Below are positions 32,274 to 46,243 of a stretch of DNA of 57,148 nucleotides, piece after piece. Numbering within the stretch: the stretch's first letter is position 1; the number at the start of each line of letters is the position of its first letter. The DNA is from Candidatus Peregrinibacteria bacterium. GTDB taxonomy: Bacteria; Patescibacteriota; Gracilibacteria; CAIRYL01. The stretch is taken from assembly GCA_037138215.1 (NCBI GenBank), contig JBAXIU010000001.1, positions 1 through 57,148 on the forward strand, read 5' to 3'. The notes beneath the pieces are model-generated. The model saw only the letters and a list, made by a program, of their open reading frames with translations. It did no database searches and had not been told where the DNA came from. A program made the translations under genes and the position numbers.

Positions 32274-33836
32274 TCACGGGTTTTCTCCCGCCTCCATAGT
32301 GACTACGCACAAAAAGTTTTTTACTTTGAGGTGCCACATGGCTTCGGGAACGCCAAACTCCTCTAAAAAATCCACTCCTTGCACTTCTTCAATCGCATTG
32401 GCGTAAAACGCCGCCGCGCCGCCAATGGCATGGAGATACACCGCGCCGTGTTGAGACAATGCTTTTTGTGTTTTTTCTCCCATTCCTCCTTTTCCAATAA
32501 CGGCTTTTATTCCTGTTTTTTGGATAAATTCGGCTTGATATGCTTCTTCTCGGATGGAAGTGGTGGGTCCGGCTGCCGTTATTTTCCAACGATTCTCTGA
32601 CAGGGGGTCATGACCCCCTGTTGCTCGAGAGATGGTATGACCCCTTGTTTCAAAATGGGTCGCTACTGGACCACAGTGGTATACTGCGCTTCCTTCCACA
32701 TTTTTAGGAAGAATGAGTCCTTTTTCCACGACTTGGGAGTGGAGCGTATCTCTTCCGGTAAATATCTCCCCATGCACCATCACTATGTCACCTATTTTTA
32801 AAGCGCGTATTTGGCTTTCTGTACAGGGAAAAGTGAGGGATTTTATTTTCTCGTGGTTCCCTTGCTTTAACAGGGGGTCATGACCCCCTGTTATTTCGGA
32901 CAGGTCATTCTTACCTTCAAGGACAGGTTTAAAACCTGTCCCTACACCACCACTCATTTCTTCTCTTTTTTCCGTCATTGGTAATTTGTCATTTGTCATT
33001 GATAATTCCACTGCCCCTCTTCTCATTGCCCAACAACTGTAGCTGACGGTTACAAAAAAGCTGGCGGGAAGACGATGCGAAGCCGAACATTTTACGCCCA
33101 AAAGTGTTGTTTTTCCTCCAAACCCCATGGGCCCAATACCGAGGGCATTGGTACGGGTAAGAATTTCTGTTTCTATTTCTCGCAGGGTTTCATCTGGATT
33201 TTCGAAAAAGAGGGGAAGGAGAAGATTTTTTTTGGCGTATGTATAACCACTTTCACGGTCTCCACCAATATGTACCCCTAAAATACCTGGCGCACAGCCT
33301 TTTCCTTGGGCATTTTTTACGATTTGGAGCACTGCACGAATAACTCCTTCCATGTCTCGTCCCGCTTTTCCAAGATCCGTTTCCATGGGGAGCGCCATTT
33401 GCCCCGAAACATTTTCCGATCCGCCCCCTTTGAGCAAGAGTTGAATCCGTATTTTGTCATCTGTGCTCTTTTCCCAGATTATTTTGGGGAATCCTTTTCC
33501 CATATTGGTTCCAGAATTTTTTCCCGTAAGACTGTCTACCGCATTGGGGCGCAAAATTCCTTCTTTTGTGGCTTCTTCCACTGCCCATAAAATATCGGTT
33601 TCTATCCTTTCTCTCTCAGGAGAAAGCGGAGCGGTAACAAAAAAAGTAGGAAATCCGGTATCTTGGCAAAGAGGAACCGTTTTTTCTTCTGCCAGTTTTA
33701 TATTTTGCTCAATAATGTCGAGCGAAAGTTCTGCCACACCCTGTTCTTGTAGCCTCGCTTGCAAAAGCGCCTCCCGAATGTCGTCTGGAAGAGTGGTAGA
33801 AACCCGCCGAATGAGATTGAGAATTTCTGTTTTCAT
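32274..33836 (-). CDS. Class I (Fe-S) fumarate hydratase, alpha and beta domains fused through a palindrome-encoded linker
   Basis: N-terminal half has CQDTGFP, LLLKGGGSEN, and GIGPMGFGGKTT (alpha/Fumerase). C-terminal half has GEIFTGRDTLH, AAGPTTS, GKGGMG, and AMW (beta/Fumerase_C). One uninterrupted 520-codon ORF. Confidence 0.85.
   Translation of the reverse strand: MKTEILNLIRRVSTTLPDDIREALLQARLQEQGVAELSLDIIEQNIKLAEEKTVPLCQDTGFPTFFVTAPLSPERERIETDILWAVEEATKEGILRPNAVDSLTGKNSGTNMGKGFPKIIWEKSTDDKIRIQLLLKGGGSENVSGQMALPMETDLGKAGRDMEGVIRAVLQIVKNAQGKGCAPGILGVHIGGDRESGYTYAKKNLLLPLFFENPDETLREIETEILTRTNALGIGPMGFGGKTTLLGVKCSASHRLPASFFVTVSYSCWAMRRGAVELSMTNDKLPMTEKREEMSGGVGTGFKPVLEGKNDLSEITGGHDPLLKQGNHEKIKSLTFPCTESQIRALKIGDIVMVHGEIFTGRDTLHSQVVEKGLILPKNVEGSAVYHCGPVATHFETRGHTISRATGGHDPLSENRWKITAAGPTTSIREEAYQAEFIQKTGIKAVIGKGGMGEKTQKALSQHGAVYLHAIGGAAAFYANAIEEVQGVDFLEEFGVPEAMWHLKVKNFLCVVTMEAGENP
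32600..32621. repeat. 22-bp perfect palindrome, family B copy 1 (inside the fumarase beta domain)
   Basis: acagggggtcatgaccccctgt, followed by half-site atgaccccttgt at 32637-32648. Translated in frame as ...ATGGHDPLS... Confidence 0.9.
32870..32891. repeat. 22-bp perfect palindrome, family B copy 2 (fumarase linker)
   Basis: Identical acagggggtcatgaccccctgt. Translated as ...ITGGHDPLL... Confidence 0.9.
32921..32945. repeat. Palindrome family C copy 1 (fumarase linker)
   Basis: ggacaggtttaaaacctgtcc + ctac. Translated as GTGFKPVL. Related copies at 35298-35356. Confidence 0.85.
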
Positions 33837-35287: not shown

Positions 35288-35297
35288 TTTCCTCATA

Positions 35298-37023
<1,726 letters not shown>

Positions 37024-37037
37024 TTTGTCCCACCGCC

Positions 37038-37065
37038 GTAGAGACGCATTGCAATGCGTCTCTAC
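37038..37065. repeat. 28-bp perfect palindrome, REP family A copy 1
   Basis: gtagagacgcattgcaatgcgtctctac, with a lone half-site attgcgtctctac at 37088-37100. Confidence 0.9.
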
Positions 37066-37114
37066 AAAAAAATTCAAAATGGAGAATATTGCGTCTCTAC
37101 AAACCCACAAAAAA

Positions 37115-37138
37115 ACACCGCATTGCGGTGTTTTTTTG
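37115..37138 (+). terminator. Intrinsic terminator of groESL
   Basis: acaccgca / tgcggtgt stem followed by T7. Confidence 0.8.
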
Positions 37139-37200
37139 TGGGTGACAGAAAACGGGGAATGGGGGAAAATGTGGGTACCAAACATTTTTCAATAAAAATT

Positions 37201-37809
37201 ATGGAAGTACCATACGAAGAAAAACTGGAAAAAATTAATGATTTTATTAATAAAACACTAGAAGAAACCAGTTGTGTTATTGAGCAATTAAACGGGAAAA
37301 AATGTATGCGAACTTTGGCGTTGCTATCCTTTGCACATATGGAAGTTTTTGCAAGTTATTGGTGTCTTTATAAAGGGAAAAAAGAAGATCACGGAGATAA
37401 AATTAAGGACTGGATAAATACTTTTTTTCTCACAGAAAAAAACATTTACATGGAAGAATCTCCACACTACAAAAATATAACTGACATAGAATTATATAAA
37501 ATAAGATGTAATACTGTTCATTTTTTCTCTCCCCGTCTCCCTGATAAGTTTCTTCCTAAAAGAATAGGAATAACGGAAGATGAAAGAAGTATGAATCCCA
37601 ACGATGCTAAAAATATTTTTGATTTCGGAACTATTCTGATATCCAATAGATCTTTACTTCTCTTGATATTAGAGGGTGCAAAGCTCATGTTAAATGCCTT
37701 ATTAGATAATAGTGATCCCAATCATATTCCAGGAATAGAAAGAATTTATAAAAAAATCAATGAAGAAGGAGGTGAACAAATAAATATTGATAATCATGCC
37801 AATTCATAA
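37201..37809 (+). CDS. Hypothetical protein (202 aa) bracketed by identical REP palindromes
   Basis: ATG 37201 (MEVPYEEKLEK...). A/T-rich relative to neighbours. Its stop overlaps the RAYT start by 14 nt. No motif recognised. Confidence 0.5.
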   Translation: MEVPYEEKLEKINDFINKTLEETSCVIEQLNGKKCMRTLALLSFAHMEVFASYWCLYKGKKEDHGDKIKDWINTFFLTEKNIYMEESPHYKNITDIELYKIRCNTVHFFSPRLPDKFLPKRIGITEDERSMNPNDAKNIFDFGTILISNRSLLLLILEGAKLMLNALLDNSDPNHIPGIERIYKKINEEGGEQINIDNHANS

Positions 37810-38476
37810 TGGATTTCAAATTCAACCGGCCCCCAACCGTAGAGACGCATTGCAATGCGTCTCTACAACCGAACCATCCGAAAAATTCCAAAATAAATAC
37901 CGTATTCCCTCCGCCCGCCTAAAAAATTACGATTATGGCGAGGACGGCGCATATTTTGTAACCATTTGTACCAAAAATCGGGAACCGTTTTTTGGAGAAA
38001 TAAAAAACGGGAAAATGCAATTATCAAAAATAGGGAAAATTATTGAGGAGGAATGGCAAAAAACGGTAGAAATACGAAAAAATATCACACTGGGCGAATG
38101 GGTGGTAATGCCGAATCATGTACATGGGATTATTTTTATTAACGGGAACAGTGACGGGGAAGGGTGTAGAGACGCGATTCATCGCGTCTCTGTAAAAAAC
38201 ACAGATGCGATTCATCGCAACACAGACGCCATAAATGGCGTCTCTACAAATGGCGGCATTACAAAAAACAATAACCCTATGTTACACGAAAATTTATCAA
38301 CCATTATAAGATGGTATAAAGGGCGTACAACATTTGAAATACGAAAATTTAATCCTGATTTTTCCTGGCAACCCCGATTTCATGACCATATCATTCGTAA
38401 TGAAACGGAATTAACCAAAATTTCTGAATATATTTTTCATAATCCACAAAACTGGGTACAAGACGATTATTTTTGA
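37796..38476 (+). CDS. REP-associated tyrosine transposase (RAYT), IS200/IS605 Y1 (HUH) family
   Basis: YRIPSARLKNYDYGEDGAYFVTICTKNREPFFG, the HUH motif in MPNHVHGIIFI, and C-terminal WQPRFHDHIIRNE..L..I.EYI..NP. REP palindromes lie inside the ORF. Confidence 0.8.
   Translation: MPIHNGFQIQPAPNRRDALQCVSTTEPSEKFQNKYRIPSARLKNYDYGEDGAYFVTICTKNREPFFGEIKNGKMQLSKIGKIIEEEWQKTVEIRKNITLGEWVVMPNHVHGIIFINGNSDGEGCRDAIHRVSVKNTDAIHRNTDAINGVSTNGGITKNNNPMLHENLSTIIRWYKGRTTFEIRKFNPDFSWQPRFHDHIIRNETELTKISEYIFHNPQNWVQDDYF
37839..37866. repeat. 28-bp perfect palindrome, REP family A copy 2 (in RAYT codons 15-24)
   Basis: Identical to 37038-37065. Translated RRDALQCVST. Confidence 0.9.
38165..38247. repeat. Three family A-like palindromes inside the RAYT ORF
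   Basis: tgtagagacgcgattcatcgcgtctctgta (38165-38194), degenerate acagatgcgattcatcgcaacaca (38201-38224), and agacgccataaatggcgtctctac (38224-38247). They lie between the HUH motif and the C-terminal catalytic region. Confidence 0.85.
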
Positions 38477-45073: not shown

Positions 45074-46177
45074 ATGATTTCTTCCCTCACCCTTGAAAAT
45101 TTTCGCAAGTTTACCCAAGAATCGTTTGTATTTTCTGAAGGCATTACGGTGATAGAAGGCAATAATGGCGTAGGGAAGACCAATATTCTGGAGGCGATTT
45201 ACGCGCTTGCTACTGGGAAGCCTTTTCGGTCCCATAAAAAAGAAGTTTTTGTGCAGCACGATGCTCCGTATGCTCGTGTTTCTGGTATTTGTACTTCCCC
45301 CCCTGATAAGGGGGGGCTAGGGGGGGGTGGTGAAAAAGACGCGATTAATCGCGTCTCTACCATTTTTTGGCAAATATCCCCCACGGCGAAAACGGCGTAT
45401 TTTTGGGATGATATTGCACTTTCAGCTGGGGAATACCTCAAAAAAAAGACTTTTTTTGCGGTACTCTTTTCACCAGAGGAAATGAATCTTCCTCTGTTTG
45501 CCCCCAAATATCGAAGAAATTTTTTAAATCGTCTCCTGTCCCTCCTCTTCCCCGAGTATTTTGAAGCCGCGAGTAAATATGAAATAACGCTTCAAAATCG
45601 AAATCAACTCCTCAAGCGCGCTCAAGAATCGTTTGTTTCTCCCCAAGAGTTTTTCTTTTGGGATCAAGAACTCATCAAATGGGAAGCCGTCATCCGAAAA
45701 AAACGAGAGGATTTTTTTGTGTTTGTGAATGTGCACATTTCTTCTGCTTACCAGCGTATGAGTGGAGCTTTTGATGATATTGCGATTCATTTTCAGCCAT
45801 CCGTGGATTCTCATATTCCCTTTACTGAAGCATTACTGTCTCATTTTGCACGCGATAAAATGATGGGGAGTACGGGCGTTGGTCCCCATCGTGATGATTT
45901 TCAAATCCTTCTGAGAGGGCTTCCTTTAGAAGAAGACGCGTCTCGCGGAGAAACACGGTCGGCACTTCTTGCCCTTAAAGAAATAGAACGCATTTTTATT
46001 GCAGAGCATACGGGTACGCCACCTATTTTGCTGTTAGATGATGTTTTTTCTGAGCTGGATCAAAATCATCGGGAACATCTCCTCAAAAGCCTTGAAGGGA
46101 CTCAAACGATTCTCAGCACTACTGAATGCGCATTTCCACCGGAACTCAAAAATAAGTGTCGTATTCTGCAACTCTGA
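45074..46177 (+). CDS. recF: DNA replication and repair protein RecF with a palindrome-encoded insertion
   Basis: L.LENFR...GNNGVGKTNILEAIY (Walker A) and LLLDDVFSELD (Walker B / signature). 367 aa. Confidence 0.9.
   Translation: MISSLTLENFRKFTQESFVFSEGITVIEGNNGVGKTNILEAIYALATGKPFRSHKKEVFVQHDAPYARVSGICTSPPDKGGLGGGGEKDAINRVSTIFWQISPTAKTAYFWDDIALSAGEYLKKKTFFAVLFSPEEMNLPLFAPKYRRNFLNRLLSLLFPEYFEAASKYEITLQNRNQLLKRAQESFVSPQEFFFWDQELIKWEAVIRKKREDFFVFVNVHISSAYQRMSGAFDDIAIHFQPSVDSHIPFTEALLSHFARDKMMGSTGVGPHRDDFQILLRGLPLEEDASRGETRSALLALKEIERIFIAEHTGTPPILLLDDVFSELDQNHREHLLKSLEGTQTILSTTECAFPPELKNKCRILQL
45297..45360. repeat. Two palindromic elements in frame inside recF (family E, then family A-like)
   Basis: ccccccc-tgataa-ggggggg (45297-45316), a G7 run (45321-45327), and agacgcgattaatcgcgtctctac (45337-45360). 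Translated SPPDKGGLGGGGEKDAINRVST. Confidence 0.85.
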
Positions 46178-46210
46178 TTCTATTCCACCCCCCCGTCCCG
46201 CTCAGCGGTA

Positions 46211-46243
46211 TACCCCCCTTTTAATAGGGGAAAGGGGGGCTAC
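46211..46243. repeat. Family E G/C hairpin downstream of recF
   Basis: tacccccc-ttttaataggggaaa-ggggggcta between the convergent recF and RNase J genes. Confidence 0.6.

Follow-up and report, generated by a model that had tools for sequence, protein, structure and literature searches.

How does the gene of a DNA-repair protein come to carry two palindromic repeats within its reading frame, and how are they tolerated? The question is raised by recF of a Candidatus Peregrinibacteria bacterium, a member of the Candidate Phyla Radiation (CPR). The gene lies in the window, i.e., the whole stretch of DNA analysed (57,148 nt; contig JBAXIU010000001.1 of assembly GCA_037138215.1), which is the entire contig C1 of a 1.44-Mb genome (93 contigs, 41% GC). 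Most of a 66-nt segment of this gene consists of two different dispersed elements, namely a repetitive extragenic palindromic (REP) sequence and a palindrome made of C and G runs, referred to here as element A. Both very probably inserted at, or were remodelled into, the tip of a RecF beta-hairpin, where they persist since they are harmless.

Composition of the recF segment

The gene, its segment and the nearest related element are arranged as follows.

45074-46177, plus strand: recF open reading frame (ORF), 367 aa, matching Pfam SMC_N and TIGR00611
45296-45361, plus strand: loop segment, 66 nt, codons S75-T96, flanked by anchors shared with the same-genus orthologue (30 nt there)
45297-45327, plus strand: element A, C7-TGATAA-G7-CTA-G8, read PPDKGGLGGG, of a three-run palindromic family
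45328-45336, plus strand: spacer TGGTGAAAA, 9 nt, delimited by direct reading against canonical REP copies
45337-45360, plus strand: REP of the GATTAATC-loop subfamily, read (K)DAINRVST, a perfect 20-nt palindrome with 3' CTAC
46188-46243, plus strand: extended element-A variant, in the 75 nt separating recF from the convergent RNase J gene

Translation of the ORF confirms that the protein reads ...ARVSGIC-TSPPDKGGLGGGGEKDAINRVST-IFWQISPTAK..., with the insert between the two flanks given by an earlier, sequence-only reading of this DNA. Element A is made up of C7 (45297-45303), TGATAA (45304-45309), G7 (45310-45316), CTA (45317-45319) and G8 (45320-45327). The earlier reading had correctly recognised the C7-TGATAA-G7 hairpin, while its separate "second G7 run" turns out to be a G8, which belongs to element A because the family consensus has a third run. 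The REP part comprises the perfect palindrome AGACGCGATTAATCGCGTCT (45337-45356) followed by CTAC (45357-45360). Thus, the 3' CTAC is kept (GTAG on the other strand), and AAAA stands instead of the 5' GTAG; the last 4 nt of the spacer TGGTGAAAA occupy the place where the lost 5' tag belongs.

Altogether, 55 of the 66 nt come from two dispersed repeat families, and the segment is a composite of two different palindromic elements, as had been proposed. In shuffled sequences, a C6-N(3-12)-G6 pattern is expected 0.02 times. The palindrome AGACGCGATTAATCGCGTCT, with up to 3 mismatches, was matched 3 times as against 0.00 by chance; the two other matches are located inside the RAYT-like (REP-associated tyrosine transposase) ORF at 38170 and 38224. 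Together with the 28-mers at 37038 and 37839, they bear out the assignment of the second element to the REP family of the RAYT locus.

The relative of the first element noted just downstream of recF is indeed present, in a looser and extended form. It consists of C7, an inner hairpin CCGCTCAGCGG, C6, a 15-nt loop, G6 and CTAC, in the opposite orientation, and resembles extended element-A copies elsewhere in the genome (C17:10423, C26:15018 and C30:4831).

State of the recF gene and of its sequence

RecF matches TIGR00611 at 259.4 bits (cut-off 172) in one stretch over residues 2-350, in addition to Pfam SMC_N. Walker A (G29-T36), the signature (S290-E293) and Walker B (D322-D323) are all intact. 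In two alignments (A1 and A2), the invariant residues G29, N31, G34, K35, S290, R291, G292, D322 and D323 are kept, and no invariant or nearly invariant residue of the family is missing. The alignments, the 367-codon ORF and the TIGR00611 match agree with the earlier statement that the frame, Walker A and the signature had survived. Both recR and recO are found in the genome, intact and open.

Misassembly, named in the earlier reading as something that would overturn it, does not explain the segment. Two independent assemblies, produced by different pipelines and both covering the whole recF gene, reproduce the insert-bearing DNA. A JGI contig (3300021069) shows 100% DNA identity to the window over 2818 nt and a Logan contig (SRR7053572) over 1558 nt, including the three homopolymers in both cases. 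An identical RecF protein was found on 5 contigs. Repeat-induced misjoining, by which the palindromes would have been placed in recF artificially, could be suspected since the window is a metagenome-assembled contig and Logan contigs break at such repeats (one stops exactly at 46243), but with identical DNA over the whole gene and the frame preserved it is virtually out of the question.

Comparison with other RecF proteins

The RecF of a same-genus genome (G001, 69% identical) reads GITS-QNSQNTENLA-LFWQ, with QNSQNTENLA at the site of the segment. The DNA anchors GG(T/A)AT...(A/T)CT and (A/C)TTTTTTGGCAA enclose 66 nt in the window and 30 nt in G001, and the DNA comparison found neither element A nor REP at this site in G001. 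The net gain is therefore 12 codons (36 nt). The earlier reading of a 22-codon insertion holds for the 22 codons lying between the anchors; as a net insertion relative to the nearest orthologue it does not.

In 116 RecF homologues, 4-41 aa separate the anchors G71 and I97 (median 11, mode 8); in the present protein it is 25 aa. Because this spacing ranges so widely, the site is a length hot spot of RecF and the most length-variable loop of the protein. Protein-level conservation among distant RecFs would have spoken against an insertion, and the orthologue alignment recommended earlier shows the segment to be not conserved in other RecFs. One candidate for a second, independent REP in the same loop, that of the CPR bacterium P0060 ('...RDDIVDLKRVST...'), was rejected, its DNA being without the REP palindrome.

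Structural setting and tolerance

An AlphaFold2 model of RecF built on the 116-sequence alignment reached a predicted local distance difference test score (pLDDT) of 94.2 and a predicted template modelling (TM) score of 0.91. Compared with the solved RecF structures 5Z67, 5Z68 and 5Z69, it gave TM scores of 0.85-0.87. Since the modelled strands 66-75 and 91-100 flank the loop 76-90, the sole weak block (pLDDT about 61), the insert is predicted to lengthen the tip of one surface beta-hairpin in domain I of the ATPase head. In the model, the REP-derived INRVST begins the following strand. In the published structural account (PMC5794780), the ATP and DNA sites of RecF are Walker A, the signature and the alphaD/alphaE channel of domain II; the hairpin of the segment is not named there, and the literature consulted lists no residue-level contacts for it.

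With the motifs kept, the fold confidently modelled and recO and recR present, the insert-bearing RecF is likely to be functional. The earlier claim that a repair gene tolerates palindromes in its coding sequence is thus supported by the intact motifs, the confident RecF fold and the passed TIGR00611 threshold.

The REP family and its RAYT-like gene

The REP consensus is GTAGAGACGC-N8/9-GCGTCTCTAC. The genome has 38 copies on 27 contigs, 20 of which are recovered by a strict pattern. Most of the 38 read GTAGAGACGC...GCGTCTCTAC, and the canonical copies are 28-nt perfect palindromes. Four loop subfamilies are distinguished: ATTGCAAT, GATTAATC, AAAATTTT/AAGATTTT and CCCGCTGGGG. Because the third frame has TAG, REPs are read in only two frames, as RDAxxxVST or VETxxxASL, in about equal numbers; the recF REP uses one of these two.

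The RAYT-like gene is situated 7 kb upstream of recF, and the genome has two further Y1_Tnp genes. The locus contains the following features (no strand is assigned to the repeats).

37796-38476, plus strand: RAYT-like Y1/HUH transposase gene (Pfam Y1_Tnp, 28 bits, cut-off 23)
37038-37065: perfect 28-nt REP GTAGAGACGCATTGCAATGCGTCTCTAC, the left copy of a 100% identical pair bracketing a 251-codon ORF
37839-37866: the second 28-nt REP of this identical pair, at the 5' end of the RAYT-like ORF
38165-38193 and 38220-38248: REPs in frame inside the RAYT-like gene, forming an imperfect inverted pair

The in-frame REPs lie between the HUH motif (NHVHGII) and the tyrosine region and are read CRDAIHRVSV...TDAINGVST. 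On these sequence features (palindrome, tag, multi-copy dispersal and a RAYT gene flanked by repeats), the family qualifies as a GTAG-REP family. The bracketed ORF of 251 codons (37054-37809) is A/T-rich, stands just upstream of the RAYT-like gene and has no match in Pfam or NCBIfam.

Within the class, REP was found in 15 of 41 genomes, with no matches to reversed control patterns; the same-genus G001 has 8 strict REP copies and no strict copy of element A. The family extends far beyond the class. The exact 28-mer GTAGAGACGCGATTAATCGCGTCTCTAC occurs in at least 119 stretches from species-representative genomes, including Nostoc, Calothrix, Scytonema, many Bacteroidota, Methylococcales/Crenothrix, Myxococcota, Spirochaetia and several CPR groups. 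Loci L065-L144 were examined, e.g., L100:6128-7963, L103:1-1905, L123:2643-3923 and L071:5824-7998. A RAYT-like gene was nearby at 5 of 80 cross-phylum loci, and 26 of 83 copies were in open frames, 4 of the 83 being within a RAYT-like gene; these counts rule out that the REP travels only inside RAYT genes. Confirmed host genes encode a CysJ-like reductase of Crenothrix, a P-type ATPase (twice) and MoeA of Nostoc, UvrC of Moraniibacteriota and RecG of Moranbacteria.

The element A family

The consensus of element A is C6-TTGTAA/TGATAA-G6-TA-G6. The genome has 38 hairpin copies, of which 12 follow the strict three-run pattern (reversed control 0). About 22 of the 38 have a third run nearby, and some have a longer spacer holding a second small hairpin. 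Among the 41 genomes of the class, the element was found in 7 (reversed control patterns again 0). This patchy distribution resembles that of mobile DNA. The relative G023, with a genome of 0.7 Mb, has 22 strict three-run copies, more than the genome of the window itself.

Placement of both families in the genome

To be scored as in frame, a copy had to be followed through at least 40 codons and a start codon in an open frame on both sides; an independent, crude gene mask classed 88.5% of the genome as coding. By the former test, 24 of 38 REPs and 23 of 38 element-A copies are in frame inside long ORFs, and by the latter 25 of 38 and 24 of 38 are in genes. Relative to random placement, both families are depleted in genes (p = 2e-4 and 5e-5), yet they are massively tolerated there. 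Since about two-thirds of the copies are in frame, tolerance of palindromes by a repair gene is the rule in this genome. Copies of the two families lie in many housekeeping genes, and recF, one of about 45 in-frame cases, is not exceptional.

According to Pfam matches, REPs are hosted by the genes of UvrC (3 copies), AlaS, PanC, UDP-GlcNAc 2-epimerase (2 copies), ClpB, MurD, IspH, PheT, ProA (2 copies) and AroA. Element A occurs in those of DnaE, ValS, LeuS, ArgS, MutL, Dus, MiaA and others. Five aminoacyl-tRNA synthetase genes are among the hosts of the two families, and in several host proteins the Pfam domain match runs across the element. One ORF passed by the open-frame test (C9:28119-28943, minus strand) was discarded as an antisense artefact inside alaS.

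The elements are clustered: 11 adjacent pairs within 60 nt were counted against 1.2 expected, the recF pair being the sole combination of element A with a REP. This may be due to a small number of permissive sites or to insertion targeted to hairpins.

Other GTAG-tagged families, such as GTAGAGCCGTTGCATGCAACGGCTCTAC, are mostly intragenic as well. Terminator-like families (GGGCTGACT.., GAGCAACTC.. and ATTCCCGC..), serving as an internal control, have 0 of 13 copies in genes. In all, at least eight further hairpin families were seen, including ACAGGGGGTCATGACCCCCTGT, GGACAGGTTT..AAACCTGTCC, GTAGAGCCGTTGCATGCAACGGCTCTAC, GTAGGGGCGTAT.. and GGGCGCGAT.. among others. They are distributed genome-wide, and within the window they occupy 32600-32622, 32869-32891, 32920-32944 and 35296-35320.

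The two synthetase genes alaS (C9:25555-28800) and valS (C15:19110-22517; L051) each have an inserted His_Phos_1 domain, the copies being 31% identical. Element A breaks the ValS copy exactly at the gap of the AlaS copy, and a REP follows the AlaS copy.

Origin and persistence of the insert

A sequence of events can be proposed for the preferred reading, i.e., arrival of both elements at the hairpin tip and their harmless persistence. REP copies would have spread by a RAYT acting on single-stranded hairpin DNA, and element A by some kind of activity. Selection would then retain only copies which restore a length of 3n, are read in a frame free of stops and fall in permissive loops or linkers. 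RecF would continue to function, the insert forming a flexible, glycine-rich extension and INRVST taking over the start of the next strand. Mobilisation by the RAYT has a single indirect indication, the patchy occurrence of identical REP copies among relatives and phyla.

Several points weigh against this reading. The insertion is deduced from an orthologue that is 69% identical, and no empty recF allele has been seen. Two scans of public metagenome contigs with exact flanking anchors (gaps of 0-30 and 31-61 nt) returned no empty-site or single-element allele; this null result carries no information, since only exact anchor matches count and records of the genome itself may be missing from the search. 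The net gain of 36 nt is smaller than the 55 nt of element sequence in recF. The same disproportion is seen in ispH (C35:5214-6143) and aroA (C83:166-1467), which gained 21 and 12 nt, respectively, for a complete 28-nt REP; the IspH and AroA orthologues in relatives are without REP and represent empty sites. The recF REP lacks its 5' GTAG. The RAYT-like protein matches NF047646 (REP_Tyr_transpos) at 68 bits in two stretches and misses the equivalog cut-off of 80. This protein is no more than a putative mobiliser of the REPs, and no transposase is known for element A.

The net gain being smaller than the element, simple cut-and-paste fails for the junctions, so that resident codons were presumably replaced or later trimmed. 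Loop codons may have been exchanged at insertion, or the loops may have been shortened later, which would have restored the frame.

Alternative explanations

The three G/C runs of 7-8 nt within the recF ORF invite comparison with a contingency switch. Slippage in C7, G7 and G8 would make recF phase-variable, and the tracts in dnaE and mutL, where element A is also found, would give transient mutator or hypo-recombination states. In a similar vein, Di Nocera et al. raised the speculation that mutator states might be favoured by REPs in repair genes (PMC3733652). Such a switch is nevertheless very unlikely. The JGI and Logan assemblies have the same run lengths as the window, all three being consensus assemblies that hide minor variants, and the RecF protein is identical on all 5 contigs. 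G/C runs of 7 nt or more number 67 in the genome, of which 42 lie within genes, and recF is therefore not singled out; the dnaE and mutL copies have shorter runs (C6, G6 and G6-G7). The wider proposition, that the element-A tracts (C7, G7 and G8 in recF and the shorter ones in dnaE and mutL) act as slippage switches generating reversible repair-deficient or mutator subpopulations, is quite unlikely too. If it were true, selfish palindromes would double as evolvability devices in the genome-maintenance genes of a CPR bacterium.

Exaptation would mean that the glycine-rich and RDAINRVST extension had given RecF a new interaction (with DNA, RecR or another partner) and was positively selected. 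The stems have kept their perfect palindromic symmetry, the model places the REP half within a beta-strand, and the loop belongs to domain I of an ATPase whose dimer, according to PMC5794780, binds DNA. On the other hand, identical peptides occur in dozens of unrelated enzymes of this genome and of other phyla, which argues against a RecF-specific role, and the same-genus RecF is without the segment. The loop is of low confidence and variable length, and the DNA channel named in that account is formed by domain II helices, not by the hairpin of the segment. Thus, exaptation is highly doubtful.

The two strong hairpins might also serve in the recF mRNA as a signal for processing, stability or translation pausing. 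The 91-nt region folds at -40.8 kcal/mol (z = -4.1), and in E. coli an action of REPs on mRNA is known (background cited in PMC3733652). However, such a fold is the automatic outcome of palindromes, the terminator scan called no terminator-like site within the insert, and the copies are at arbitrary positions in many genes, which leaves an RNA-level role with a slim chance. The combination of the REP hairpin with T6 was considered separately as an intragenic terminator and rejected: the scan calls none, 6 nt separate the T run from the stem, and this run is ancestral, being present in G001.

Finally, recF might be decaying, with the insert crippling the protein and the gene heading for loss in a reduced genome. 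No recF match was obtained in 8 of the 41 related genomes, so the gene appears dispensable in parts of the clade. This is hardly probable for a gene with an intact 367-codon frame, all invariant motif residues, a confident fold and intact recO and recR. Harmless persistence in a permissive loop is retained as the preferred reading.

Relation to known systems

REPs inside genes have already been published. Di Nocera, De Gregorio and Rocco (2013, BMC Genomics 14:522; PMC3733652) described GTAG- and CGTC-tagged REPs inside ORFs, many of them in genes of replication and repair (uvrABCD, recBCD, polA, dnaE2/dnaE, ligase) and of tRNA synthetases. REP inserts present as dimers or groups encoded 20-30 residues. 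The authors argued that insertions fall in loops or linkers, speculated on mutator effects and cited the Rickettsia palindromic elements (RPEs) as the first in-frame palindromic insertions. The recF case fits feature by feature: short GC-rich palindromes with terminal GTAG/CTAC, many copies, linkage to a RAYT and in-frame copies. The recF REP may or may not belong to one of the 24 GTAG families distinguished there. In contrast to those REPs, described in the paper as predominantly extragenic, about two-thirds of the copies in this 1.4-Mb CPR genome are intragenic. The text of the paper does not mention recF as a host, and in the recF insert a REP stands next to a three-run C/G element that is untagged and unrelated to it. 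New here are recF as a host gene, the occurrence in a CPR bacterium, the very high proportion of coding copies and the combination with a three-run element lacking the tag. In the literature searched, no link between REPs and CPR bacteria was found.

The REP/RAYT (TnpA-REP) systems and REPINs of E. coli and Pseudomonas reportedly combine GTAG-tagged hairpins with a single-domain HUH/Y1 gene flanked by repeats, as in this genome. Classical REPs are said to be extragenic, whereas most copies here are coding and the RAYT-like gene itself carries in-frame REPs. The contingency loci of Haemophilus and Neisseria likewise have G/C runs of 7-8 nt inside coding sequence. Unlike in those loci, no length variation is seen between assemblies here, and the runs are a by-product of a repeat element occurring in many genes.

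RPE-1 to RPE-8 (Ogata et al. 2000, 2002), as cited in PMC3733652, share with the present elements the in-frame position of palindromes in a small genome and in many housekeeping genes. The sites cited there are surface-exposed and the host proteins thought to be functional. RPEs are not known to be linked to a RAYT, and their host is an alphaproteobacterium, whereas the present one is a CPR bacterium. RPE-1 is about 100-150 bp long compared with the 24-31 nt of the elements here. Thus, the recF insert seems to work like an RPE and is not filed as a member of that family, the comparison being by description and size only.

Implications

With these data, recF joins the genome-maintenance genes having in-frame REPs, and a CPR/Patescibacteria genome joins the organisms concerned. 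The extent is worth noting: about two-thirds of the copies of several palindrome families are coding, and even the RAYT-like gene is affected. An identical 28-nt REP is common to cyanobacteria, Bacteroidota, proteobacteria and CPR. In proteins of CPR and other bacteria, peptides like RDAINRVST, VETRLIASL and PPxKGG represent repeat-derived loop fillers instead of conserved motifs; homology and domain analyses should mask them.

Contig ends

A perfect 48-nt inverted repeat stands at the ends of the contig (5-52 and 57101-57148). Either an assembly artefact or a genuine structure, terminal or invertible, could account for it.

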